In this document: positions 388-57,385 of the stretch, piece after piece
How the letters are laid out: the number at the start of each line of letters is the position of its first letter
Numbering within the stretch: position 1 is the stretch's first letter
Source of the DNA: Minisyncoccota bacterium
GTDB lineage: Bacteria; Patescibacteriota; Minisyncoccia; Phycocordibacterales; UBA9973
NCBI GenBank assembly: GCA_031413715.1
Contig: JANOFO010000009.1
Span: 2,718 to 66,717, forward strand
DNA: 64,000 bases
Direction: 5' to 3'
The notes under the pieces: generated by a model
Seen by the model: only the letters and a program-made list of their open reading frames with translations
Database searches by the model: none
What the model was told of the DNA's origin: nothing
Position numbers and translations under genes: made by a program

Positions 388-1608
388 ATGAAAATATTTA
401 AATTCAAAAAATCTATGTTGTCGAAGCTCGCAAGTTCTACTATAATAACAGCTTTGATTTTGCTTACCTCATTTGGTCCACAGCTTGCAGAAGCTCTTGC
501 TATTACAGCATCAAAAGACACAGCAACAAGGCTCCAGATTAGCACTGCTGCCGACCATGTTATAAGTTTCACACTGCCGACTGGCATAGATCTGGATGTG
601 ACTACCCAGCATGATGGATTCCACTTTGATTTTCCTGCATCATTTACTTCAGCTGGTACATGGGCCAATGCTGACTTCGCTTTTACGGACAGCAACGGTT
701 CTCACACCATTGAAGGTACAACTCAAGGCGCCGGTACTATTACTTGTACCTCTACAACAGCGCAAAATGTTTGTGTTGCTGTTGATACCACCAACAATAT
801 CTTTACCGTTAAGCCCTCGACAACCTACACTGCTTCTTCCACAGCATCAGCTATTACATTTACAATCTTAGGTACAGGTGCGGGCGGTACGCTTACCAAT
901 CCCGCTTCAGTAGCTGCGACTAACATTGATTTCCAGATGTGTGATGAGACAGCTTCTTGCTTCACATCTTTTACCATATCCCACTCTAGCCAGATTGCCT
1001 ACGCTGTCATTGATGACGATGCAGTAGCAATAACCGCGACGGTCAATTCATCAATTACTTTTGATTTAGATACTGCGGGAAGCAATGATAGTACGTGTGA
1101 TACAGATGAAACTGCGGCACCGTATATAATAGCTCTAGGCTCGATTACAACTACTGATACAAGAGTCTCTGGTGCAACTGATACTATCAATTTAATCTGT
1201 GTTGATCTTGACACCAATGCCTCCGGTGGAGCAGTGATTACTATCGCAAATGCCAATGGAACAAACGGCCTTGCGTCTACATCAGTTCCAGCTGATGACA
1301 TAGACAGTGTTACTGGTAGCGTGGCAGACAACACAGAGAATTATGGTGTATGCATTGTTACCAGTACAGCTACAACAGGTACTCTAGACGATGAAGGATT
1401 ATACGACGGTGATACTTGCGCGGCAAACTCCGAAACTAATAATGTTAAAACACTGTCTGCCACAGCAGGCAATATCTTCGATACCAATGGCGCTCCGATT
1501 GCCGGTGGTCGCGGAACGATATCCGTGCAAGCTTCAATTACTGGAGTTCAGCCTGCTCATAGCGACTACACTGATGCCCTCACCTTTATAGGAACGGGCA
1601 CATTCTAG
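388..1608 (+). CDS. Secreted Thr/Ala/Ser-rich beta-rich surface protein (signal peptide ...LAEA; conserved C-terminal DYT..TF motif)
   Basis: 406-aa ORF. N-terminal hydrophobic signal sequence, T/S/A-rich low-complexity body. C-terminal motif shared with 2..238, 24712..25353 and 26365..27141. Confidence 0.7.
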   Translation: MKIFKFKKSMLSKLASSTIITALILLTSFGPQLAEALAITASKDTATRLQISTAADHVISFTLPTGIDLDVTTQHDGFHFDFPASFTSAGTWANADFAFTDSNGSHTIEGTTQGAGTITCTSTTAQNVCVAVDTTNNIFTVKPSTTYTASSTASAITFTILGTGAGGTLTNPASVAATNIDFQMCDETASCFTSFTISHSSQIAYAVIDDDAVAITATVNSSITFDLDTAGSNDSTCDTDETAAPYIIALGSITTTDTRVSGATDTINLICVDLDTNASGGAVITIANANGTNGLASTSVPADDIDSVTGSVADNTENYGVCIVTSTATTGTLDDEGLYDGDTCAANSETNNVKTLSATAGNIFDTNGAPIAGGRGTISVQASITGVQPAHSDYTDALTFIGTGTF

Positions 1609-28721: not shown

Positions 28722-31700
28722 ATGTATTCATTCGAAAAAACAAACAGAAAATTAAGAAACAAATCAAATACTGCGCTCGCAGTTTTATTGGTTGCTCTGT
28801 CACTTTTTCAGTTTCCATTCATCGGTAGAGCGGCATTTAACAAACAAATAAATTATCAAGGCAAGCTCACCAACGCGTCTGGAGTTGCAGTTGCAAATGG
28901 GGACTACAATATGGAATTCAAGTTAATGACAGTCTCAAGCGGTGGTGACACTACGCAAGGTTCGTGTACTACTAGTTGTGCATGGATGGAAACAAGAACT
29001 GGCGGAAGCAAGGTAACTGTGACGAACGGCCTCTTTAGTGTTCTCCTTGGTGAAGTTACTTCACTCTCTGGAGTTGATTTTAACCAGACCTTATATTTGT
29101 CAGTTCAGATCGGCAATACAGGAAGTCCATCATGGGATGGAGAAATGACTCCACGAAAAAAATTGGGAGCAGTTCCTGCAGCAGTTGAATCAGAGCGAGT
29201 CGGAGGATTTACTCCAGCCCAATCTGCAACAGGCAATCAAGTTCCGGTGCTTACATCTGGAAATTTAATTCTTGGCGGAACAAATCCAACATTCGGCGGA
29301 ACGGGATCAAATACATTGACGCTTCATAATGGCGCAACAGGAGATATTCAATTTTTCGGTTCATCAAATAAGATTACTTCCGGAGGCGCGCTTACAGTTA
29401 CGGGTGTTGTAAATGCTGCAGGATTGACTTCTTCTGGAGCAATTACATTTTCATCACTTGGCACCGGTATTGCTCATCTATCTTCGGGGGGCGTGCTCTC
29501 ATCGTCAGCTATTGATCTGGCAACTGCTGATGTCACGGGAATTTTGACAACAGCAAAAGGTGGAACAGGCATTGGAACACTTGCCTCCAATGCAGTACTC
29601 TATGGTAATGGTACCGGAGCCATTCAAGCCTTGGCTGTAAACTCAGGTGCAACCCTGTGTCTTACTCAAGCAAGTAGTGGTGCACCGGCATGGGGATCAT
29701 GTGGTGCAGGAGGCTCTACCAACTGGGATACCATAGGTGATGCAGGAGGGAATGGCGCCATTGCTATGGGTACCACGGAGCAGACTATGGATTGGGATTT
29801 CACTACGACTGATCACGATGGACTTACCTTTAATTTTGATAACAATGGAGGAACAGCAGGGACCGACCATGGAATTGTTATCAATAACGCACTCTCAACA
29901 AATGCATCTGGAGATCTTGATACAGAAAATTTATTACTGATTCAACAACTCGATACGACTGCTTCTGGCGTAACTGATATTGATAATCTTCTTAAGATAG
30001 ATATCGCAGCAAACTCAGGTGCAACTGATGGCATCGAAATTACAAATTCTGGAGGAAACATCACTGGCAGTGGACTTAATATTGTCGACACAGGAGGCGG
30101 TACCTTTACAACAGGCATCACGCTTGCGGGAACGTTTACTACTGGAATAGATATGGGAGCGAGTACATTAATTAATATTGGAAACGCTGCCACTGATTTT
30201 AATTCGAGCGGTGGACTAACACTTGCGAGTGACCTCGTACTCAATGCCCAAGCAGATGTCCGGTTTGCAGATGCGGATAGTTCTCATTATGTTGGATTCC
30301 AAGCACCATCAAGTATCAGTTCGAGCTTTACATGGACACTGCCATCTACTGACGCAACAGGGTGTCTAAAATCGAATGGTTCAGGAACACTTTCTTTTGA
30401 TGGTGCCTGTGGAGAAACTGACTATGAAACATTTACAGGAAATGGAACTTTTACTAAAAAATCAAATGCCCTTTTAGTTGTTGTCGAAGCATGGGGTCCT
30501 GGTGGTGGCGGTGCAGGAGGAGGTAGTGTTGCTGCTGGTACCGCTACTACAGGTGGTGGAGGTGGTGGAGGAGGCGCATATACAACTCGATCGATTGCTG
30601 CAGGATCTGTCGGAGCGACTGAAACGGTGACCGTTCCTGCTGGCGGTACGGCTGGAACCGGTGGTACAAATGCTGTCGGTACAGATGGTTCTGCTCCGAC
30701 AGCTGATACAAGTTTTGGATCACTCCTCATTGCATATAGAGGAGGAGGTTCTGGAAATGGAAACAACTCTGCTACTGGCGGCGGAGGCGGCGGAGGCGGC
30801 GGATCAGCAGGTGCAGGAACAAGCTCGACGAACCAAACAGGAGGAGCTGGTGGTACATGTGCTGGTGGTGTAACCGTTGGTGCTGGAGCAAACGCTTTTG
30901 GTAGCTGTGGCGGCGGCGGAGGAACAACAACTTCAGGTAATGCGAATGAAGGAGGAGGCGGTGGTGGAGGACTTGCTGCCGGAGGAACTGCAGGACGATC
31001 GGGAGGTACATCCCTCAAGGGAGGCGGCGGAGGCGGTGGAGGAGCAAGTCTTGCAGCAACTCATGCTTCGACTGCCGGAGGTCCAGGAGGTGCAAGTGGT
31101 GCTGCGATGCAGGCAGCAGGAACCGGCGGAGGTGTTGCCGGAGGTGCTGCTGGAACAAATAATGGAACTGCCGGCCAAGATGCAACTTCTTCAACTGGTT
31201 CGCAGATTGGAGGTGGTGGAGGAGGCGGTGGAGGAGGCAGTCAGGCTACAGCTGGATCAAACGGCGGAGCCGGGGCAGTCGGAGGTATTCCTGGAGGAGG
31301 TGGTGGAGGAGGCGGAGCAGGAACGCATAACGGTTCGACAGGAAGTGGCGGAGCCGGAGGAGCCGGCGCACGTGGAGAAATTCGTGTTTGGACCTATCGT
31401 GGCACAGGAGCCGATTTGGCGGAAGTTTACGGAACAAATGACTCAACCCTTGAAGCCGGAGATGTCGTATCTCTTGATCATGACATGCAAGCGGGAGTTA
31501 AAAAAAGCAGCAAAGCATATGATGCTGAGGTAATGGGTATTGTTTCAACAAAACCTGGCATGATTATCGGTAATATTGAAGATGCTGGCGCCATTCCAGT
31601 CCTTCTCGCACTCTCTGGTCGTGTTCCCGTAAAAGTAAATATGGAAAATGGCGCGATTAAAAAAGGCGACCTCCTTACCCCTTCATCCATTCCTGGTGTT

Positions 31701-32990
31701 GCAATGCGAGCGACAAAAGCAGGTAGTATTATCGGACAGTCAATGACAGAGTATATTGACCCTGATGCGCCAGGGTATGTGGTAGTTTTTATTAAGAATA
31801 GTCATACGACGGGAGCAAAACTTTCTGATCTTTTTGCAGGAGAACTTGAGATGATAGGAGGGGAGATAGATAAAGGAGTGGAATTAAATCCATCAGAATT
31901 AATAAAAGGAACCAAAACGCTCCAACAGCGTGCACTTGCTTATTTTAATACTAATAAATTGACTCTCTCAGAGTCTCTCAATCTTTCGGAAGTGACTGCC
32001 GATAGAGTTACTGCAGGACTTGAAATTATAACGCCGACACTCTTTGTAGGAACTGTTTCAACCGATTCTATAACTCCTCTAAATGGAACTTCTCTTGATA
32101 TACTGCTTTCGAATGAAGGTACATTCAACATTAAGAACCAATTGTTGACAGAAGGAGCCGGATCAGCCGAACCTATTGTCAGTATTGATAATTTAGGGAA
32201 CGCGACATTTGCGGGTAATCTAAAAGTAAAAAGTATCAAAGCAGATTCGATCGAAGGTCTCGATTCTTTACTCATGACTAATGCCCATTTAGCCTGGGAT
32301 TCTTTCACAACAAAAACCCTGACTGTATCCGAGAACGCAATCTTTAGTGGAGAATCAAGGTTTGATGGCCTCACATTCTTTAGTATGGCTGCGAACTTTG
32401 ATTCCAGTGTGACATTTAATGCACAATCGGAATTTATTCTTCCACCACTCTTCAATAGTGATACAGCTGGCTTTGCTATAATAAAAAAGGGGAGTCGCAG
32501 AGTTCAAATAATTTTTGAGACGCCTTATATAGTTGAGCCTGTTGTAACCACATCGCTTGTATTTAGCACTGCGGATAAAGTGACTGATTCTGGAGCAGAT
32601 GAGATATTTACTGCAAGCGTTCAGTCTCTTGTCATCGATAGTGATCAAAATGGATTTACTATTTTTTTGAACAAAAACGCGCCACAAGATCTAAGATTCA
32701 CTTGGAATGCGCTTTCTGTCCGCGATCCGAAAATTTTTGAAAGTGTTATCGAAGGTCTCACCATTGAAAATTTACCACTAGACCTACTTCCGCCAGATCC
32801 TTTACCTGATCCAATTCCAGAACCCGACCCAGTCCCTGATCCAACTTCAAAAGAAGAAGATCCAGTTCTTGATCCTATTCCTGTGCTTGATCCAGAGCCT
32901 GTCCAACAAGAAGACCCAGCCCCGATACTTATAGAGATATCTGAGCCGGTAGTGGAAACAAAAGAGGAGCCCATTCCTATAGTTGAGTAA
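28722..32990 (+). CDS. Giant (1422 aa) secreted glycine-rich fibre-like surface protein with Pro/Asp-rich C-terminal tail
   Basis: Signal peptide. N-terminal YQGKLT... beta domains. About 300 aa of GGGGGGG/GAGG low-complexity repeats. C-terminal PDPLPDPIPEPDPVPDP. Confidence 0.75.
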   Translation: MYSFEKTNRKLRNKSNTALAVLLVALSLFQFPFIGRAAFNKQINYQGKLTNASGVAVANGDYNMEFKLMTVSSGGDTTQGSCTTSCAWMETRTGGSKVTVTNGLFSVLLGEVTSLSGVDFNQTLYLSVQIGNTGSPSWDGEMTPRKKLGAVPAAVESERVGGFTPAQSATGNQVPVLTSGNLILGGTNPTFGGTGSNTLTLHNGATGDIQFFGSSNKITSGGALTVTGVVNAAGLTSSGAITFSSLGTGIAHLSSGGVLSSSAIDLATADVTGILTTAKGGTGIGTLASNAVLYGNGTGAIQALAVNSGATLCLTQASSGAPAWGSCGAGGSTNWDTIGDAGGNGAIAMGTTEQTMDWDFTTTDHDGLTFNFDNNGGTAGTDHGIVINNALSTNASGDLDTENLLLIQQLDTTASGVTDIDNLLKIDIAANSGATDGIEITNSGGNITGSGLNIVDTGGGTFTTGITLAGTFTTGIDMGASTLINIGNAATDFNSSGGLTLASDLVLNAQADVRFADADSSHYVGFQAPSSISSSFTWTLPSTDATGCLKSNGSGTLSFDGACGETDYETFTGNGTFTKKSNALLVVVEAWGPGGGGAGGGSVAAGTATTGGGGGGGGAYTTRSIAAGSVGATETVTVPAGGTAGTGGTNAVGTDGSAPTADTSFGSLLIAYRGGGSGNGNNSATGGGGGGGGGSAGAGTSSTNQTGGAGGTCAGGVTVGAGANAFGSCGGGGGTTTSGNANEGGGGGGGLAAGGTAGRSGGTSLKGGGGGGGGASLAATHASTAGGPGGASGAAMQAAGTGGGVAGGAAGTNNGTAGQDATSSTGSQIGGGGGGGGGGSQATAGSNGGAGAVGGIPGGGGGGGGAGTHNGSTGSGGAGGAGARGEIRVWTYRGTGADLAEVYGTNDSTLEAGDVVSLDHDMQAGVKKSSKAYDAEVMGIVSTKPGMIIGNIEDAGAIPVLLALSGRVPVKVNMENGAIKKGDLLTPSSIPGVAMRATKAGSIIGQSMTEYIDPDAPGYVVVFIKNSHTTGAKLSDLFAGELEMIGGEIDKGVELNPSELIKGTKTLQQRALAYFNTNKLTLSESLNLSEVTADRVTAGLEIITPTLFVGTVSTDSITPLNGTSLDILLSNEGTFNIKNQLLTEGAGSAEPIVSIDNLGNATFAGNLKVKSIKADSIEGLDSLLMTNAHLAWDSFTTKTLTVSENAIFSGESRFDGLTFFSMAANFDSSVTFNAQSEFILPPLFNSDTAGFAIIKKGSRRVQIIFETPYIVEPVVTTSLVFSTADKVTDSGADEIFTASVQSLVIDSDQNGFTIFLNKNAPQDLRFTWNALSVRDPKIFESVIEGLTIENLPLDLLPPDPLPDPIPEPDPVPDPTSKEEDPVLDPIPVLDPEPVQQEDPAPILIEISEPVVETKEEPIPIVE

Positions 32991-49038: not shown

Positions 49039-49082
49039 TATTGAACTCTTCTTTCAAAGTTTCTATTAGCTCATCAATTTGT

Positions 49083-49215
49083 GCGGGTAGATACCCGCGC
49101 TTCTAGCGGAAATGCCCGAGGCTCTTACTCATGCTTGCCCCACATCCTCCCGTTCGCGCGCACTTCTTCCGCTAATTTTAGGACGGAAAGAGAAAACGAG
49201 CGGAAACCCCCTTAA
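49083..49215. ncRNA. GC-rich island in a 650-bp AT-rich intergenic region; candidate structured RNA of unknown class
   Basis: Hairpin GCGGGTAgatACCCGC. Long-range pairing TAGCGGAA (49102) with TTCCGCTA (49163). Roughly 60% GC against an AT-rich surround. No match by eye to SRP, RNase P or tmRNA consensus. Confidence 0.3.
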
Positions 49216-49446
49216 TTCACAGCAATATAACAATTTTTATTGTCTGTGGTTTATAACTTTTTGTAAAAATTCAGAAACAATAGTGGCTTATTTCGGTTGC
49301 TTTTGATGTGTATTGTTTTTTAATTACAACAATAAAAATTACTACCATTTTTATTGTTTTCTGGTACACTTGTAATATAATATTATAAATTAATTTAACA
49401 TAAAAACTATGGAACATACACCGATATTAAATAATGCTTCATTGAA

Positions 49447-49629
49447 ATGATTGGAGCAATTGAAAAAGGAGCTATAAAATATGATGATACATGGGTAGAT
49501 CTCGTCGCTGTAAAAAATGATGAACTCGCACAACTTGAAGAAGGGTGGGGAGGTCTCCTAATATTATTGGCAGTCCACAGGGAAAGAGCTCAGAAATTCC
49601 TCATGAAAAAATTGTTGCGATTATTGTAA
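49447..49629 (+). CDS. Small hypothetical ORF (60 aa)
   Basis: Only an ORF in the long leader upstream of 49696. No support beyond an open frame. Confidence 0.2.
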   Translation: MIGAIEKGAIKYDDTWVDLVAVKNDELAQLEEGWGGLLILLAVHRERAQKFLMKKLLRLL

Positions 49630-49695
49630 AACACTTAAAGAAGAAAATTTAATCTTTTAGTCACAGAAAAGACATTGTGACTAATAACTCTTAAT

Positions 49696-51801
49696 ATGAA
49701 AGAAAAAAATATTATTGAAAATAATACAAGAGAAGAGGTATATAATACGCTTAGACAGAAATTAAATATTTCACGAGAAGCGTTCAGTGAATCCGAAACA
49801 GTTTTAGGTTTGGTAACAGAGGAATTAAAACAGAGTTACGGAAAAAATTTGCAAGAAAGAGAGCAACTTATACTCATGCGCAAAATTGCATTGTTCCATC
49901 GGGGGAATGGTATAGCAGATGCAGTAATTATCGCCAAAACGATTATAGATACACCTGATCTATTACTCTCCAATGGATTCCCTAATCTAAAAACAGCCCT
50001 TGATATTGCCAAGAATTCTCAAAAAAAATCTGCAAATCAAGTATGGCAAGGTATATCAAACGAGACCAGAGATATGCCCACAATAGCTGAAGTTTCACTA
50101 GGAAACGGTAGCCATTATCTTGGTCGTATTTTTACAAAAAATCAAATCGCAGAGAATGGAGCTACGCTCAACACATGCATTCAAGGGAAAAGTCTTGAAA
50201 GATACTTCGATAAATCTGTGAGTGGTACTATAGAAATATTTTCGGTGTTTACTTCAAACTCTCATACTCCCATTACGACCATCGTATATGATTCTGGCCT
50301 TGGAGAAATTATGCAAGTAAAGAAACAAGACGATAGACTCCTTGATGGAGCGGAGCCATTTTTTGATGTAGTCATGGAATCTATTCACCACCTTGTATCT
50401 GAACCGAGCTATCGTACTGATGGTTCACCGTATTCGCGAACTGTTAAATATATCAGAGATATGGAAGATCTATCACCTGAACACCCGATAGCAATAGATA
50501 CATCTGGGGAAATTCGTCCGCTTGACGAAATGATATACACATCACCAGAAGCAATTTTGGGCGGTTCAAAAATAAAAGTTCATTCCGATATTAATATTCA
50601 AAAAATGATTGAGCTTACTGAAAGTGCACCTGTTGCCATTGATATGACCGAGGCGACAAACGAACAGCGTAAATCGTTACGAAAGGTACTCGGAACACTT
50701 GTTGATGACAGATCGTCAGTGAGCGGGTACGATTCACTGGAATCAGTTGGAGGCCAAATACTTGCTAATAACGCGAGCGCTGCTTCTTTCAAGAATCTAT
50801 CACATGTTCGACGGGGTTTGTACGCAAAAAAGGCAAAAGAAGTTTCAATACCTCTCTTACAAACGGTTTTAGGGAGGATTGATGTGCCTATGGCAGAAAC
50901 TCTCTACGCGCCTGAATTAACATTTGCGGGCGGAAATATAGATGCTTCTTCAGTGCAAGAGTTGATATTTTCAAAATTACAGAAAGTCGGGTGGGATATT
51001 CGTGCACACAATGCATCGCGAGTTGAAATGCCACTTGTCGAAGAAATTGGTGGTGAGTTTCAGGTTGAGCAAGCGTTAGAAATATTTGCACCATTGTTGC
51101 GCGTATGTCGTGGAATTAAAACTACGCCTCAAAGCAAAATAACAGTTCCGGATGCTATTTTGGTCTTTAGGGACAGCGGAAATGATGCTCAAGAAAAATT
51201 ATCTAAACTTCAGGAACAAGATCAAATATTACAAGAAAAAAATGCTGAGATTAAAACAAAGATTGAAGTGGTATTGCATGAATGGCAACAACAACTCCCT
51301 GAAGTAAAAATAATACTGGATGGGTCGCTAGTTTCAGGATTACATATCATTGACCAAGATACGAAAGTTATTGATGCTGATGTCCGAATATTGTCTGATA
51401 TGCCCATTACAGATGAGCTTCAGAAAAAGATTACATCAATCACTGGTCTTATATATCGCAAGACACATGACATAGATATTTGGCCTGATGGAGAAAAATT
51501 GGGTAAAGGTATTATGCTTGCTGAGGCCATGAAAATATTGGGGATTAATCTTCCTGTTGAAGTATGCGCTATGCTTCGTAGTAGTGCACAGTATATTAAT
51601 TGGGGACAATATTACAGGCAGGTACTTACAGAAAATGAAATTTTTAGTTATACTAAACAAAAACGATTACTGCAATCAGGAAGTGATGAAAAAGAATACA
51701 AGAAATTCAAAAAAAAGTATTTGGACTTGGTGCGAAAACGATGCGCTGAGCGTGGTTTAGTTGAACTGCCTAATTATGTATTACCTGAAGTCCCTAATTA
51801 G
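49696..51801 (+). CDS. Large hypothetical protein (701 aa), first gene of the P-loop/HD/Nudix cluster
   Basis: No TM segment, no motif recognised. Consistent coding frame. Confidence 0.6.
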   Translation: MKEKNIIENNTREEVYNTLRQKLNISREAFSESETVLGLVTEELKQSYGKNLQEREQLILMRKIALFHRGNGIADAVIIAKTIIDTPDLLLSNGFPNLKTALDIAKNSQKKSANQVWQGISNETRDMPTIAEVSLGNGSHYLGRIFTKNQIAENGATLNTCIQGKSLERYFDKSVSGTIEIFSVFTSNSHTPITTIVYDSGLGEIMQVKKQDDRLLDGAEPFFDVVMESIHHLVSEPSYRTDGSPYSRTVKYIRDMEDLSPEHPIAIDTSGEIRPLDEMIYTSPEAILGGSKIKVHSDINIQKMIELTESAPVAIDMTEATNEQRKSLRKVLGTLVDDRSSVSGYDSLESVGGQILANNASAASFKNLSHVRRGLYAKKAKEVSIPLLQTVLGRIDVPMAETLYAPELTFAGGNIDASSVQELIFSKLQKVGWDIRAHNASRVEMPLVEEIGGEFQVEQALEIFAPLLRVCRGIKTTPQSKITVPDAILVFRDSGNDAQEKLSKLQEQDQILQEKNAEIKTKIEVVLHEWQQQLPEVKIILDGSLVSGLHIIDQDTKVIDADVRILSDMPITDELQKKITSITGLIYRKTHDIDIWPDGEKLGKGIMLAEAMKILGINLPVEVCAMLRSSAQYINWGQYYRQVLTENEIFSYTKQKRLLQSGSDEKEYKKFKKKYLDLVRKRCAERGLVELPNYVLPEVPN

Positions 51802-51841
51802 ATTTTTATGCAAAAGTATGTAATTAACTATATATAATATT

Positions 51842-54136
51842 ATGAAACCAGAAAATTCGCCTAATATTGGCATAAAAAAAGCTATAGAATATGTTAAAAA
51901 ACAAGAGGATATGCTTACAAAAAGCAAAGAAACCCCTATTGAAATTGAGTTTGAAGGAGGGTTATCTGAAAGTCAAAAAGCAAAAAAACATATTGTATGT
52001 TTCGTAGGCATGCCGGGTGCGGGGAAAACAACGCAGATAGAAGCGCTCCAAGGTTACACAGGTGCTCCAGTATTTCATCTTGCAAAAGTCGCTAAAACTC
52101 TTAATCTTGAGAAAGATGGTGTACAAGTACCAGTAGCTGATCTTATGGAGGAAAAGAGAAAAATGGGTGAACTTATCGAAGGGCTCGATGATCTCTTTTT
52201 AGCTGAAGTTGCAAACTCAAAACAAGGCATTGCAATTCTTGATGGATTTCCAAGATCACCCGACCAAGCCGCACATCTGCTGGCGTATGCGGCGAAAAAT
52301 CGATGGCACATTGATGTTGTCTATCTTGAATCAGATGTGCATCATGCATGGCGTCATCAGGTACGGAGAGCGAAAAACTCGAATGAGAATGTTGATTGGG
52401 AAAGATTCGACGGCAAAATAGATAGGGCAATCCGCAAAGATATTCCTGCTGTACAAGCTCTGAAGTCGGCTGGTGTTCCAATTACCGAACTCGATGCGAC
52501 ACGTGACAAGAAGGATCTCAAGGGAGAGATACGAGAATCCCTTGGATTTTCATACGAGAATCTTCCTTGGGAAAAGAATATTCTTGAGTACGGAAAGATT
52601 GCTTCACAGCGCTCTGGCGTTCAACTTTGGTTTGGCGCAGGGATGTTGTATCGTCCTTTTTGGAACGGAAAGTTCGGCCCTTTTCAAGAATCAACTGACA
52701 AAGACATCTTTGTCATGCGGAAAGAAGATATTGAATCGGTACAAAAGGTTCTTGAAGAGATTGCACCTGATATTAGGTGGTCAGTACATAGCCGCGCCGA
52801 AGAGAGTGAGGCGCATTTCGGACATACACCTACAACACTAGAAGAAGGTATTACACACGCACCCATGAATTTTAGAAAAGGTGGAGTTCGTATGGGACCA
52901 GATGGAAAGATGGAGGTGCTATTGTCACCTATAGTTGAGGCCGATTTACGAAATGGCATATTGCGACTTGATGATTCAGTACTTGCTTCCATTGATCAGG
53001 CGAAGCGAGAAGAGTATATCAACGATGCTATGCGCCGTATGCACAAGACCTTGCGTGAATATCCTGGTCTGCAATTTGCTGATACCACGCTCGCAGAGAA
53101 GTATGCACAAGTGACCGGTTCTGCTCACGCACCAAAAGAGCTTATTACTCGATGGGAAGAAATACAGGACGAGATTTGGGAAACGGAGACTGGGGGGCGT
53201 GCTCGATGGAATCCTGATTCAATTAACATTGAACAAGAAAACCTTATGAACGAGCTTGTTTCTTTTTATCGTACAGTAGACAAGAGTCCCTCTGCTCCTC
53301 CTCGACCAAAGAAATCTATCATGCCTGTATTGATTGAAGATTTGCGTGTACGAAATATTACTGACAAGGTTCAGCCTCCCGAGGGATACGAATCATGGCT
53401 CCAGTATGTTATCCGCGAAGCAACTGACGCGGAGTTTTGCGAATGGCTTTTGAATCAGACTCGAAGCAGACAGCCGATTGGGGGGCGTGATCAAGATCTA
53501 TCGGGAATACTGACCTTTTCGCGAGAAAAAGAGCAAGAAATTGGAGTACAGACGCAGGAGCAGAAACGGTCGCATCTCGGATTTACACTCGACCAACACT
53601 TACTCGAATCGGCTTTGCAATTACATACAGATGAACTCGAAGAATTACTCAAGTCTTTTCCAGTAATTCCATTGCAGTTTAGAGATGTACGTGCTTCCTT
53701 ACGCATGGGTATGCTCTATCACGACATCGGAAAATTGTACAATGTGCATACGCCTGGCTCCCATGAAGGAGTCGGAGCAAAAATGTGGAATCGCTTAAAA
53801 CCGTCATGGATATCAGACGAACAAGCAAGCCTTGCAGAATGGATTATTCGAACTCACGACGTATTCGGAAGGTTGGCGCGTGGCATTACAGAAAAGGAAA
53901 ATAAATCGCTTGAAGATAATAGTTTCAACCCAATGGCAACCCCATCTTATCAGGGAGCACTTGATCCCCATGAAGCCTTGGGTGAACTAGAGCGACTTGG
54001 TTACCCGAGGGATCTAGTGATAGCTCTGCATAAAATAGCGTGGACTGCGGATGTAAGTTCAGTCTCGGCACTCAGATGGATTTTACCGGCAGCAGACATC
54101 CTAGAGAAAATCGTTATACAAGAAACAAAAAAATAG
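51842..54136 (+). CDS. Multidomain protein: N-terminal adenylate-kinase-like P-loop NMP-kinase domain plus C-terminal HD-superfamily phosphohydrolase domain
   Basis: Walker A FVGMPGAGKTT and the AK-like ILDGFPRSPDQA motif. C-terminal HD motifs LHTDE...MLYHDIGK...HTPGSHEGV...IRTHDVFG...HKIAWTAD. Confidence 0.65.
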   Translation: MKPENSPNIGIKKAIEYVKKQEDMLTKSKETPIEIEFEGGLSESQKAKKHIVCFVGMPGAGKTTQIEALQGYTGAPVFHLAKVAKTLNLEKDGVQVPVADLMEEKRKMGELIEGLDDLFLAEVANSKQGIAILDGFPRSPDQAAHLLAYAAKNRWHIDVVYLESDVHHAWRHQVRRAKNSNENVDWERFDGKIDRAIRKDIPAVQALKSAGVPITELDATRDKKDLKGEIRESLGFSYENLPWEKNILEYGKIASQRSGVQLWFGAGMLYRPFWNGKFGPFQESTDKDIFVMRKEDIESVQKVLEEIAPDIRWSVHSRAEESEAHFGHTPTTLEEGITHAPMNFRKGGVRMGPDGKMEVLLSPIVEADLRNGILRLDDSVLASIDQAKREEYINDAMRRMHKTLREYPGLQFADTTLAEKYAQVTGSAHAPKELITRWEEIQDEIWETETGGRARWNPDSINIEQENLMNELVSFYRTVDKSPSAPPRPKKSIMPVLIEDLRVRNITDKVQPPEGYESWLQYVIREATDAEFCEWLLNQTRSRQPIGGRDQDLSGILTFSREKEQEIGVQTQEQKRSHLGFTLDQHLLESALQLHTDELEELLKSFPVIPLQFRDVRASLRMGMLYHDIGKLYNVHTPGSHEGVGAKMWNRLKPSWISDEQASLAEWIIRTHDVFGRLARGITEKENKSLEDNSFNPMATPSYQGALDPHEALGELERLGYPRDLVIALHKIAWTADVSSVSALRWILPAADILEKIVIQETKK

Positions 54137-54203
54137 TTTAAAAATCATAAATATATAGAGAGTTGATTATTATTAATAAATTTATCACAATATAAAAGAA
54201 ATT

Positions 54204-55508
54204 ATGAAAACTCCTGACCAACCAAACACTAATACCCGAGAACTACAACCACTAACTGGTCGTGAAGGTATTGATATGTTAAAAGCATCATCTGCAAAAG
54301 TGTCTGGCATTAGTTTGGTTGATTTTCTGAAAACTTCTGAAGGCAAAGAGGCCATGAAGCAAAAGAAAATCGTACTCGCTGGCCCCCCTCGTTCCGGTAA
54401 ATCTTGCCTACGGCAAGGATTAAAGGATGCCATAAAGCAAATAAGCAATGGTGACGTGTATCCTTATGTTTTGACAGCATGTCCTGATGGCGAGGGTGCA
54501 TGGTTCCAAGAATCAATGAACAATGATCCTATCCTGGCAGCCAAACTAAAAGCAGACTACAAATCAAAATTTACTCCAGAGTTCGTGGAAAGAATTACAA
54601 AATCTGTAGAAAATTTATCACTTCCGCTTAGTTTTGTTGATATAGGAGGTATGACTACTCCAGAGAATGAACAAATTTGCAAACACACAAATGGCGCTAT
54701 ACTACTTTGTGGCGAGACAGCAACTAAGAACGACGCCCCAGCTGAATGGAAAATTTTTTTTACAAAACTCGGTATTCCAATTATTGCTGAAGTTTATTCA
54801 GACTATAAAGGTATAGAAGATATAGTTGATGGAACTGGAGGAGATGGTGTGTTTAGAGGTTCTATACACCATCTTGAACGAGGTGAACCTCTTTTAAACA
54901 GAGAAACCATTAGAGCGTTAGGTAGTTTCATAATTAATCTTGGGAAAGAAATAGATGATACATTGAACATAACACATACAGTAAAACAGCTACAGGGTGC
55001 AGGAATAGATATAACAAATTGGGGTAAGGGAGGAACAAAAACTGTAGAACAATTACATAAGGAAATTCAAGACGAAGAGACCATTTTAGTTCAGGGTGAA
55101 CGCGGAGAGCTTTTAAGGAAAGTCATTGTAGGTGGTGGCGATATTTATTACACCTCGCCTGAAGGAAAAAAATATCGCTTGATCGAAGAAAAACAGGTTT
55201 TTGCCAATGGTAGTGAAAGAAGAAGAAACTTGGGACACGCTGTATCAGAAAAACTAAAGCACGGCGAAGATATAAAAGAAGCAATGATCCGTGGTATTAG
55301 TGAAGAGCTCGGCATCTCGGGAGATATATCTTTAGAAGAAGTAAAAACCCATGAAGAAATTCTATCCTCTCCTAGTTACCCTGGCTTAAGATCGCAATAC
55401 ATACTACCGGAGTTTAAGATACTCCTAACTCAAGAACAGTTTAAGCCAGAGGGCTATATTGAAACACAATCAGACAAGAGCACTTACTTTATTTGGAAAG
55501 AAATTTAA
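54204..55508 (+). CDS. Multidomain protein: P-loop NTPase (GPPRSGKS) plus C-terminal Nudix-like domain
   Basis: Walker A LAGPPRSGKS. C-terminal E-x7-RGISEELGI fits a Nudix box with one deviation (G in place of E at the REx position). Confidence 0.5.
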   Translation: MKTPDQPNTNTRELQPLTGREGIDMLKASSAKVSGISLVDFLKTSEGKEAMKQKKIVLAGPPRSGKSCLRQGLKDAIKQISNGDVYPYVLTACPDGEGAWFQESMNNDPILAAKLKADYKSKFTPEFVERITKSVENLSLPLSFVDIGGMTTPENEQICKHTNGAILLCGETATKNDAPAEWKIFFTKLGIPIIAEVYSDYKGIEDIVDGTGGDGVFRGSIHHLERGEPLLNRETIRALGSFIINLGKEIDDTLNITHTVKQLQGAGIDITNWGKGGTKTVEQLHKEIQDEETILVQGERGELLRKVIVGGGDIYYTSPEGKKYRLIEEKQVFANGSERRRNLGHAVSEKLKHGEDIKEAMIRGISEELGISGDISLEEVKTHEEILSSPSYPGLRSQYILPEFKILLTQEQFKPEGYIETQSDKSTYFIWKEI

Positions 55509-55513
55509 TCAAC

Positions 55514-56287
55514 TTATTCTGGATACTGATTTATAGGATATTTATTCCAGAGAGTGTCAAACAGCATATCAAAAGTTTTTCTAATATTTTGATCTTCTAT
55601 GATGGTAGTAATCATGCAATCTGCGAAAGAACTAAGCGCAACTTTATTTCCGTAAACGATAACCTGCGCCGGATTATTCAATTCCGTACGTGGCACTCGT
55701 TTTCTCTCAGTTAAATATTTTTCATCTTCTGCTTTGGAAATTGTACTGGGAGTGTTCTTGATTGGCACAATAAGTTTTATCTTAATACCAATTTCTCTTA
55801 ATGCTTCTCGATTTTTTGACCAAATTGGAATTACTTCTTCAGCATTATTATCAAGTGGAGAGCGGATCAGTTTAATATCAGACTTCGTGTGTAGTATGTC
55901 TTTATTTAGAATCTTCAATCCCTCTAGCCCTTCATAGAAACGCACCGTTGGTTTTCCGCATGCGAGATTAAACTGTGCTCCAAGTGTGCTAACCGCTTCA
56001 TGCAGAGCTTGGTCGGCAAGTTTTAAATCTTCTTCTTTTCTTTTTACTAGAGTGTGAAGTTTTGAAGGATGGAGTGCGGTGAAAGTACTAACTGATCCGG
56101 GGACAGTGCTTTCAATTATTAAACCTAATTCAACGAGTTGTTTTAGTATTTTATATACCAAACTGCGATTAACTCTACTTTCTAGAGCTATTTTTCTTGC
56201 CGGTAAAGCACCCGAAGAAACTAAAGATAAATATACTTTTGCCTGTTCAAGATTTAAACCAACTTGTTCTAGTAATTTTGTGCTCAT
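55514..56287 (-). CDS. TrmB-family transcriptional regulator
   Basis: N-terminal winged HTH LEQAKVYLSLVSSGALPARKIALESRVNRSLVYKILKQLVELGLI, then a C-terminal TrmB-like domain. Confidence 0.7.
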   Translation of the reverse strand: MSTKLLEQVGLNLEQAKVYLSLVSSGALPARKIALESRVNRSLVYKILKQLVELGLIIESTVPGSVSTFTALHPSKLHTLVKRKEEDLKLADQALHEAVSTLGAQFNLACGKPTVRFYEGLEGLKILNKDILHTKSDIKLIRSPLDNNAEEVIPIWSKNREALREIGIKIKLIVPIKNTPSTISKAEDEKYLTERKRVPRTELNNPAQVIVYGNKVALSSFADCMITTIIEDQNIRKTFDMLFDTLWNKYPINQYPE

Positions 56288-56398
56288 AAATTGTTTTTTC
56301 TACATAACAATAATAGCCTTATATTATCATAGTGGTATATAAGCTGTCAAATTTGCGTAAATATATCCTTATTTATATAGGTATTTATAAAATAATGC

Positions 56399-56427
56399 TT
56401 GACATTTAGAACTCAATATGCTATACT
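56399..56427 (+). promoter_or_regulatory. Near-consensus sigma70 promoter TTGACA-17-TATACT
   Basis: TTGACA at 56399-56404, TATACT at 56422-56427, about 55 nt upstream of a GGGAGGTG Shine-Dalgarno. Confidence 0.55.
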
Positions 56428-56480
56428 TATCCTAGTTAAGTTAGTTCTTTAAAAATAACCATAGTTATCGGGAGGTGAAC

Positions 56481-56579
56481 ATGAACGCAATAAATTTTGT
56501 TTTCATATCCACCTTCCGATTCACGGATAGTGAAAAACAATCCGCCGGTGATTGGTCCGGCAAAAATTATGTTAAATGA
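56481..56579 (+). CDS. Small peptide gene (32 aa, MNAINFVFISTFRFTDSEKQSAGDWSGKNYVK) translationally coupled (ATGA overlap) to the downstream gene
   Basis: Strong SD GGGAGGTG 6 nt upstream of ATG. The stop overlaps the start of 56576..56881. Confidence 0.4.
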   Translation: MNAINFVFISTFRFTDSEKQSAGDWSGKNYVK

Positions 56580-56881
56580 AATATTTTAATATAAATCTTG
56601 AGGGCGATACCCTTAAGATAGGGTTTGGTCAACCTGCCCAAAATGATCAAATTGTTTCCGAGGTTATCGAGACCTTAGAAGCAATGAAAACCTCCGGGGA
56701 GCTTGCTGGAGGAAAACTGGTAAAAATTAACGGGCCGGCAAGCCTGCCAGTAGCGATGGCAATAGGCCATGCCGTCGCCCATCTCTATGAGGTGGTGGCC
56801 TGCTTCGACCCGAAGCTGGCCAAGTATGTGGTTGCCGTTTCGCACGGCGTAGACCACAGGCCAGGCGACCTGATTGATTAA
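56576..56881 (+). CDS. Hypothetical 101-aa protein; the 3' half of the gene is strongly GC-rich (~58% GC), suggesting foreign origin
   Basis: Consistent frame. No motif recognised. Composition shifts from AT-rich to GC-rich midway through the gene. Confidence 0.55.
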   Translation: MKYFNINLEGDTLKIGFGQPAQNDQIVSEVIETLEAMKTSGELAGGKLVKINGPASLPVAMAIGHAVAHLYEVVACFDPKLAKYVVAVSHGVDHRPGDLID

Positions 56882-57072
56882 AAGATCAAGTTCGCCGGAG
56901 GGAGTTTAAATATTCTCCTAAGTTCCGTAAATTCGGAATACTGAACAAAATATTTTATTTGTCCCCGTATATCTAAAATAAGAAGGACTTATTTTAAGAA
57001 AATGGAGAGCCATGAGGGAGCAGAACCTCTATCGATCTTGGGGGATGAATAATTTATTTATCTCATTCCCCA

Positions 57073-57123
57073 GCTTTCACAAGATGCGTATCTTGTCTGA
57101 TGAGTCCAAAAGGACGAAAAAGC
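57073..57123 (+). ncRNA. Type III hammerhead self-cleaving ribozyme
   Basis: GCUUUC|ACAAGAU-gcgu-AUCUUGU CUGAUGA GUCC-aaaa-GGAC GAAA AAGC. Stem I is 7 bp, core is C3UGAUGA9, stem II is 4 bp with the G10.1-C11.1 pair, then G12A13A14, A15.1-U16.1, and stem III of 5 bp. Predicted cleavage after C at 57078. Confidence 0.8.
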
Positions 57124-57143
57124 ATATAAAAACTTTTGTAATT

Positions 57144-57170
57144 AAAAAACCACCTTACGGTGGTTTTTTA
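57144..57170. terminator. Bidirectional rho-independent terminator
   Basis: AAAAAACCACC-ttac-GGTGGTTTTTT. Confidence 0.8.
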
Positions 57171-57310
57171 ATTCATATAGTATTTTAAATTTTGCCCATC
57201 GCCCCATACCAAATTTAAATTCCCCCGCCAAACAAAGCTAGAATTAAAAGCAATGGGGTGAGGGCGGATGCACCGAAGGCGCATGGCGGAGTTCATTGGG
57301 TGTTGATTGC

Positions 57311-57385
57311 GGAGCCGCCTCCCAGACTCGAACTGGGGACCCTCACTTTACAAAAGTGTAGCTCTACCAACTGAGCTAAGGCGGC
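57311..57385 (-). tRNA. tRNA-Thr (anticodon TGT)
   Basis: Reverse complement GCCGCCTTAGCTCAGTTGGTAGAGCTACACTTTTGTAAAGTGAGGGTCCCCAGTTCGAGTCTGGGAGGCGGCTCC folds as a cloverleaf: 7-bp acceptor stem, GTTCGAGTC T-loop, anticodon loop TTTGTAA. A27-A43 mismatch; CCA not encoded. Confidence 0.85.

Follow-up and report, generated by a model that had tools for sequence, protein, structure and literature searches.

Bacterial and phage hammerhead ribozymes have been on record since 2010-2011, and for that reason one further copy is not news in itself. The hammerhead of the satellite RNA of tobacco ringspot virus (sTRSV), which is carried by a rolling-circle RNA replicon, is a type III ribozyme with a GUCC/GGAC stem II and a stem I of 6 to 7 bp capped by a loop rich in U and G. 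Perreault et al. (2011, PMC3088659) described bacterial hammerheads that lie beside prophage genes and may divide long transcripts into mRNAs of gene length, and de la Pena et al. (2017, PMC6155905) called the biological roles of prokaryotic hammerheads an open question. Here we examine a window of 64,000 nucleotides from a Minisyncoccota bacterium of the Patescibacteriota (contig JANOFO010000009.1, positions 2,718 to 66,717; coordinates below are those of the window). An earlier note had claimed a complete type III hammerhead ribozyme in this stretch, and our analysis bears the claim out: all core positions and three helices are present, and the element is a full-length, indel-free member of its family. 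It lies in the 3' untranslated tail of a gene for a Csx3-like protein, on the coding strand and 192 nt after the gene. Like the gene-flanking hammerheads of prophages and phages, it is intergenic and co-oriented, sits in variable DNA as those do in variable or integrated DNA, belongs to a group that sometimes has several copies per operon, and invites the same proposal of transcript processing. It differs from them in that its host DNA is a Patescibacteria chromosome and its partner a Csx3-like gene of the CRISPR-ancillary kind; neither an integrase nor phage genes were recognised nearby.

The 51 bases of the element and its parts are listed in Table 1. There are zero deviations from the invariant type III core (C3 U4 G5 A6 N7 G8 A9, G12 A13 A14 and H17), and the two conserved pairs are formed by G57104-C57115 (G10.1-C11.1) and A57119-U57077 (A15.1-U16.1). 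Base by base, the sequence agrees with the positions first proposed for stem III with its A15.1-U16.1 pair and C17, for the stem I hairpin at 57079-57096, and for the CUGAUGA core, stem II with its G10.1-C11.1 pair and G12A13A14. Stems I and II are loop-closed and stem III is open, which gives a three-helix junction in the minimum free energy (MFE) structures of RNAs of 51, 145 and 299 nt; the isolated 51-mer takes this fold at -11.7 kcal/mol, and the junction persists in both longer contexts. Self-cleavage is predicted to occur between C57078 and A57079.

Our own type III descriptor, which demands the core, H17, the A15.1-U16.1 and G10.1-C11.1 pairs and stems of at least 4/3/3 bp, has exactly 1 match in the window with both strands scanned. 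Among 1,500 dinucleotide-preserving shuffles of the whole window there were 2 matches at the loose setting (4/3/3 bp or longer), and no match had stems reaching the 7/4/5 bp of the window copy; these shuffles put the chance expectation per window far below 1e-3. Because no shuffle was as good, we conclude that the hammerhead is not a chance occurrence. Model R1, a covariance model trained on 31 type III hammerheads of phages with the window sequence left out, gave a single match in the window (57072-57124, 61.8 bits, E 5e-17) that spans model positions 1-53 without indels. Together, and at the level of sequence, these results and the comparisons below show that 57073-57123 on the plus strand encode a complete type III hammerhead that is a member of a large natural subfamily.

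Rfam, applied to the whole window at gathering thresholds, reported the tRNA alone. The check with the Hammerhead_3 model (RF00008) that the earlier note had proposed gave, at permissive thresholds, a match at 57078-57118 of 23.7 bits, which is under the gathering score of 48.5; additional matches on the terminator were noise. The window hammerhead stays unannotated because of this shortfall. Sister copies score 28-50 bits with RF00008, only 1 of 8 above the gathering score, and for this reason we attribute the low score to the seed of the model, not to the window sequence, and consider the subfamily mostly invisible to routine annotation. The window element shares with RF00008 the core (CUGAUGA, GAA, A15.1-U16.1 and C17), three helices with an open stem III, and the GUCC/GGAC stem II; it differs in its loop II, which has 4 nt as opposed to 8 in the model, and in its 15.2-16.2 pair, which is A-U where C-G is usual. 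The sub-threshold score, a stem III that is A/U-rich and just 5 bp long, and a modest folding z-score of the 51-mer (-1.6, no better than 14 of 200 shuffles) speak against the processing role proposed below and would fit a chance or decayed look-alike without cleavage activity. Such a look-alike is very improbable given the low expectation from the shuffles, the full-length match to an independent family model, a core without any deviation, and sister copies that carry compensatory changes.

In its stem II and stem I the window copy resembles the hammerhead of sTRSV. It differs from that ribozyme and its engineered derivative in loop II (AAAA versus GUGA) and in loop I, which is a 4-nt GCGU closed by U-A as opposed to the larger loop of sTRSV, and it is encoded in bacterial DNA. 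The core CUGAUGAGUCC...GGACGAAA is nearly that of the engineered hammerhead of many constructs (CUGAUGAGUCCGUGAGGACGAAAC, found in methods-type papers), and two or three copies are present in some related loci, as might be expected if the element were half of a ribozyme-bounded circular RNA of the retrozyme or viroid-like kind, or an engineered or vector hammerhead contaminating the assembly. Either origin is extremely improbable. Elements of the retrozyme or viroid-like kind have at least two same-strand copies bounding a unit, whereas the 64 kb contain one copy and no tandem repeat; the AAAA of loop II and the A at position 15.2 set it apart from the engineered version; the DNA around the ribozyme is chromosomal and syntenic; and hundreds of natural relatives occur in metagenome-assembled genomes (MAGs) and viral contigs.

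These relatives were found with two patterns. Viral contigs were scanned for the core and stem II (CTGATGAGTCC-N3-8-GGACGAAA), which gave at least 126 matches in at least 120 loci. Among the 126 matches listed, 86 can be completed to a type I hammerhead, 30 to a type III and 3 to either, 119 in all, against 7 that fit neither, and we therefore take the pattern to mark real ribozymes. The phage type III copies are built closely alike: a hairpin lies upstream, stem III is short and followed by C17, stem I has 7 bp and a loop that is usually UGNGU, and the core and GUCC-NAAA-GGAC come next; their alignment (A1), for which copies were chosen with a stem filter, has 93.8% of cells paired and double changes in 10 of 16 pairs, with strong covariation in stems I and III. 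Species-representative genomes were scanned with TGNGT-N7-CTGATGAGTCC-N4-GGACGAAA, stems I and III lying outside the pattern, and yielded at least 130 matches, of which 129 of the 130 listed complete the type III fold. Of these 129 listed members, 124 have a stem I of 7 bp; at H17, 85 have C, 34 have U and 10 have A, and the 15.2-16.2 pair is found in each of the four Watson-Crick types. Patescibacteria account for about 63 of the 80 record titles shown (Saccharibacteria, Parcu-/Paceibacteria, Nomura-, Woese-, Kaiser-, Ames-, Collier- and Gracilibacteria), about 11 of the 80 belong to other phyla (for the most part MAG contigs of Gammaproteobacteria that have phage-like repeats), and several genomes have multiple copies, with at least 3 in the complete chromosome OY970327.1 (genomic loci L128-L207; related loci are designated here by L numbers). 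The scans and alignments show a subfamily of predicted ribozymes with a 7-bp stem I and a UGNGU-type loop, a GUCC-NAAA-GGAC stem II and a variable stem III, which occurs in phage contigs and above all in Patescibacteria, also known as the candidate phyla radiation (CPR). Our literature search for hammerheads together with Patescibacteria, CPR or Csx3 returned nothing specific beyond passing co-mentions in reviews.

The loops of this subfamily bear on how fast its members may cleave. Loop II is NAAA in 125 of the 129 genomic members listed, the pattern having left it as a free N4, and loop I is UGNGU in about 17 of the 31 phage members, where the pattern left that loop free; essentially all phage members with a UGNGU loop I also have an NAAA loop II. 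Loop-loop contacts are used by natural type III hammerheads (PMC6155905), and because both the unpaired loops and the helix lengths (7 and 4 bp) are constrained, the data suggest a conserved contact between loops I and II. The short loops had been read at first as a sign that tertiary contacts may be absent; the comparative data (NAAA, UGNGU and the 7-bp stem I) argue the opposite, and from the conserved loops efficient cleavage at low Mg2+ would be expected.

The gene upstream of the ribozyme encodes a Csx3-like protein with 720 homologues, the named ones mostly from Patescibacteria; no PDB relative of the family was detectable by sequence. Compared with the known Csx3-AAA modules (PDLC01045; PF09620), this 101-aa protein matches the Csx3 part and a 434-aa protein encoded at 54204-55508 (+) matches the AAA part (PADLOC E 3e-46); the two are fused elsewhere, whereas in the window each has its own gene, with that of a TrmB-type regulator (55514-56287, -) on the opposite strand between them. 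At other CPR loci a P-loop gene (GPPRSGKS...CPDGEG) lies directly 3' or 5' of the Csx3-like gene. We found no report in the literature of a ribozyme or structured RNA attached to Csx3-AAA modules. A tblastn search of the protein against the hammerhead loci detected 2 independent Csx3-like genes, in a Gracilibacteria MAG (L195) and a Saccharibacteria MAG (L203), with a ribozyme 40-60 nt 3' of each. When 80 Csx3-like loci were gathered from metagenomes by protein alone, blind to ribozymes, model R1 gave 23 matches in 18 loci (19 in 16 without two duplicate loci), all on the strand of the gene, and a hammerhead lay within 260 nt downstream in 10 of 63 distinct Csx3-like regions. These counts show that the pairing of a Csx3-like gene with a predicted downstream hammerhead recurs in about one-sixth of related loci. 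In an alignment fitted to the model (A5), 97.6% of cells are paired among the 21 distinct copies near Csx3-like genes, with covariation in each of the three stems and compensatory changes in 13 of 16 pairs, three of them in stem II; one copy (L261) shares its stem III with the window copy and differs in stem I by a single compensatory double change from A-U to G-C. At three loci (L274, L296 and L300) same-strand arrays of 2-3 hammerheads punctuate small genes downstream of the Csx3-like gene, which at L274 include genes for a 71-aa membrane protein, a 127-aa protein and a 170-aa HD-like protein. We also considered whether the hammerhead is a conserved 3' untranslated element of every Csx3-like gene and rejected this, as the closest relative (L122) and about 84% of loci are without one.

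The plus strand of the window carries, in order, a sigma-70-type promoter-like site, an open reading frame (ORF) of 32 codons, the Csx3-like gene, about 190 nt of structured RNA ending in a hairpin, the hammerhead and a terminator. The small ORF lies just 3' of the promoter-like site, and its stop overlaps the start of the csx3-like gene (ATGA). The promoter-like site could drive a transcript that contains both reading frames, the RNA motif and the hammerhead. The hairpin abuts stem III, and after cleavage it would end 6 nt from the new 3' end. An upstream hairpin is visible in phage members also, and one ending at most 4 nt from the hammerhead is present in 51 of 124 family members versus 16 of 121 downstream controls and 9 of 124 shuffles. 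The terminator-like hairpin begins 17 nt past the ribozyme and was missed by a simple terminator scan because its A/U tracts extend the stem. Locus L276 has the same ribozyme-then-terminator layout as the window, and L320 has a promoter-like site after the ribozyme; some other copies have a TTGACA promoter-like box within about 30 nt 3' of the ribozyme, and a motif resembling GUUCUUUGAAAA recurs 1-15 nt 3' of many hammerheads (L131, L137, L169, L170, L261 and L276; 57129-57141 in the window).

On balance we think that self-cleavage probably trims or uncouples the 3' end of the csx3-like transcript. In the mechanism that we propose, transcription from the promoter-like site would yield a csx3-like mRNA with the element as its tail, and the RNA would fold and cleave at the predicted site by standard hammerhead transesterification. 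The upstream RNA, which comprises the csx3-like mRNA and the conserved 3' RNA, would then end in the abutting hairpin plus six bases with a 2',3'-cyclic phosphate, while an RNA of about 95 nt with a 5'-OH, made up of the ribozyme body and the terminator, would be released. The ribozyme would thus act as a protein-independent processing site that sets the 3' end of the upstream transcript and uncouples whatever follows, a role that would match the one proposed for prophage hammerheads (PMC3088659). In favour of this role, upstream ORFs across the family are co-oriented with the ribozyme in 89 of 118 cases and opposite in 29, with the ORF end typically 30-100 nt before the ribozyme, and the abutting upstream hairpin is enriched. 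Several further observations weigh against such a role. With the terminator so close behind the ribozyme, cleavage would remove only about 95 nt. The closest Csx3-like relative (L122, 76% identity) has no hammerhead, and neither have about five-sixths of Csx3-like loci, so that the ribozyme is dispensable for the Csx3-like gene. Three close relatives of the host (L332, L328 and L330) lack the hammerhead together with the whole island in which it lies. Finally, the genes that flank the family as a whole are extremely diverse, which fits a generic or selfish element equally well.

This last point leads to the main rival explanation, namely that an active ribozyme arrived as a passenger with an island derived from a phage or other mobile genetic element and serves as generic or selfish punctuation that does nothing specific for the host or for the Csx3-like gene. 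The window is core chromosome (rpoC, dnaG, rpoD, proS, mreB, mreC, rpsB and tsf), and the closest named relatives of its S2 protein are Candidatus Paceibacterota MAGs (78-80% identity). Loci L332, L328 and L330, whose S2 proteins are 85-86% identical, keep the order rpsB-tsf-133aa-tRNA-Thr. As L332 runs from the tRNA-Thr directly into orthologues of window 48928-46616, the intervening 8.3 kb are a variable island; at the same site L330 has a diversity-generating retroelement (reverse transcriptase and bAvd) and L328 has glycosyltransferases, and the island as a whole is dispensable. Its proteins are the 434-aa AAA protein, the TrmB-type regulator, a 764-aa kinase/nucleotidyltransferase-like protein, a 701-aa protein without an assigned match and the Csx3-like protein. 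An insertion of such changeable cargo beside a tRNA gene would suit a passenger, as would the abundance of the same subfamily in viral contigs, the arrays of 2-3 copies between small genes in L274, L296 and L300, and the association of prokaryotic hammerheads with phages and prophages in the literature (PMC3088659; PMC6155905). So would the neighbours of the family members, which are almost all mutually unrelated. A common partner gene across the family was ruled out, the 83 upstream and 58 downstream proteins clustering in groups of at most 2.

Against a passenger, Pfam, NCBIfam and PADLOC (PHROGs not searched) revealed no recognisable integrase, transposase or phage structural gene in the island; the island is variable, but it thus has neither recognised phage proteins nor a nearby integrase as integrated phage DNA would. 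Csx3-like relatives (45-52% identity) do occur on seven viral contigs (L333-L339; 22-155 kb, six of them 77-155 kb), but these have no subfamily hammerhead within 3 kb. Moreover, hammerheads recur on the same strand behind Csx3-like genes in diverse CPR lineages, which is more than would be expected of a random passenger. We therefore regard a mere passenger as possible but unlikely. A search of phage DNA with 4 kb around the site matched the tRNA only. No att-like direct repeats of the tRNA end were found at the far side of the island; the sole repeat there was an inverted one of 15 nt without mismatches, formed near the island ends by GTTTTTTAATTACAA and its reverse complement (49315-49329 and 57136-57150), the right copy of which is 12 nt past the hammerhead and overlaps the terminator; in AT-rich DNA such a repeat may be due to chance.

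The stretch between the Csx3-like gene and the hammerhead contains a diverged copy of a conserved structured RNA that has no Rfam 15 family match, even at permissive thresholds. Across loci this motif consists of hairpins A and B, a long hairpin (GUCCCCGUUU/AAAUGGAGAG) with a conserved C.A mismatch that is flipped to A.C in L252 and L253, and hairpin D (GAGG-AAGCAGA-GCCUC) with covariation; in the window, hairpins A and B come first, then the long hairpin GUCCCCGU...AUGGAGAGCC and lastly hairpin D (GAGG-GAGCAGAA-CCUC). A model of the motif (R2) gave 26 matches, all on the strand of the gene, and all but one begin within a few bases of the stop codon; the structured RNA begins there in about 24 of 70 Csx3-like loci. 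The 5' end of the motif (CCAUCGAUCAG) is complementary to the last Csx3-like codons (CUGAUCGAC-UAA, e.g., L301 at about 1005-1035; UUGAU-uaaaag-AUCAA at 56873-56889 in the window), and a hairpin formed in this way would therefore enclose the stop codon. Loci that have the motif and no hammerhead have a long near-perfect hairpin (e.g., CUUAUCUGAGUUU...AAACUCAGAAUAGG) in the place of the ribozyme, which might be an RNase III-type processing site.

These observations raise the possibility that the ribozyme matures a separate noncoding RNA, by setting the 3' end of the conserved RNA of about 160 nt, which would act with the Csx3 and AAA proteins. The constant strand and position of the motif at the stop codon, the order of gene, motif, hairpin and hammerhead in the window, L320, L276 and L309, and the long hairpins that replace the ribozyme would all fit this explanation. 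It is nevertheless distinctly unlikely, as many hammerhead-bearing Csx3-like loci have no motif (L261, L263, L300, L325 and L296), many motif loci have no hammerhead, the window copy of the motif is weak (26 bits), and the analysis identified neither a promoter for a separate RNA nor a site for processing its 5' end. A broader and likewise improbable idea is that the hammerhead is one module of an undescribed composite RNA element on Csx3/AAA CRISPR-ancillary cassettes of CPR bacteria, in which cleavage would mature an RNA acting together with Csx3 and AAA. Such an element may consist of a stop-codon hairpin, the structured RNA of about 160 nt, a protective hairpin and the ribozyme, for which a long hairpin substitutes in some loci, and the matured RNA may be, for example, a cofactor, a regulator or an antitoxin-like partner. 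If true, this would give a prokaryotic hammerhead a concrete biological role.

The coordinates of the features discussed are collected in Table 1. Elsewhere in the window, 30001-32000 has a GC content of 0.50 versus about 0.39 around it, with strong GC skew, and lies inside an ORF of 1422 aa (28722-32990).

Table 1. Features of the window and of related loci (positions in the window unless a locus is named; bp, base pairs).
Feature	Position	Strand	Sequence or description	Basis
Type III hammerhead ribozyme	57073..57123	+	GCUUU-C-ACAAGAU-gcgu-AUCUUGU-CUGAUGA-GUCC-aaaa-GGAC-GAA-AAAGC, 51 bases	Sequence read, MFE fold, model R1, shuffles
Stem III	57073-57077 / 57119-57123	+	GCUUU / AAAGC, 5 bp	
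U16.1; A15.1	57077; 57119	+	A15.1-U16.1 pair present	
C17	57078	+	C at H17 (not G)	
Stem I	57079-57085 / 57090-57096	+	ACAAGAU / AUCUUGU, 7 bp; loop GCGU 57086-57089	
Core C3-A9	57097-57103	+	CUGAUGA	Sequence read
Stem II	57104-57107 / 57112-57115	+	GUCC / GGAC, 4 bp; loop AAAA 57108-57111	
G12A13A14	57116-57118	+	GAA	Sequence read
Stable hairpin abutting 5' strand of stem III	57039..57072	+	GGGGGAUGA...UCAUUCCCC	Fold
Bidirectional intrinsic-terminator-like hairpin	57140..57175		AAAAAACCACC-uuac-GGUGGUUUUUU	Sequence and fold
Sigma-70-type promoter-like site	56399..56427	+	TTGACA-17-TATACT with TG	Consensus match only, 11/12
32-aa ORF	56482-56580	+	MNAINFVFISTFRFTDSEKQSAGDWSGKNYVK	Own Shine-Dalgarno
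Csx3-like gene	56576..56881	+	101 aa	Pfam PF09620 E 2.7e-5; PADLOC Csx3-AAA PDLC01045 positions 1-99, E 1e-24
Diverged copy of conserved structured RNA	56879..57039	+	About 140-160 nt	Alignments; R2 26.1 bits, E 3e-4, full length
Variable island	~49039..57310		About 8.3 kb, adjoins tRNA-Thr(UGU) 3' end	Synteny with L332, L328, L330; PADLOC, Pfam
tRNA-Thr (UGU)	57311..57385	-	Conserved anchor bordering island	ARAGORN; Rfam tRNA 62.5 bits
Hammerheads, L274	2924-2976, 3298-3350, 4546-4610			
Hammerheads, L300	2872-2924, 4584-4636			
Hammerheads, L296	838-890, 1243-1295			
Structured RNA motif, other loci	L320:361-502, L276:1262-1398, L309:907-1036, L301:1023-1160, L323:773-908, L275:776-913, L252:2292-2435, L305:2810-2967, L259:1556-1712		Others exist	
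Replacement hairpins	L278 ~2337-2383; L323 ~940-990; L301 ~1190-1250; L253 ~600-650			

In summary, the ribozyme is of a known kind, and its context, that is, the enrichment in CPR bacteria, the Csx3-like partner and the adjacent RNA, is without a match in the literature searches made. Because the Rfam gathering threshold misses most of the subfamily, CPR genomes are probably under-annotated for self-cleaving ribozymes. A tight Patescibacteria subfamily that is found repeatedly after a Csx3-like gene, beside an uncharacterised RNA, provides a defined pair for testing the hypothesis that prokaryotic hammerheads process transcripts.

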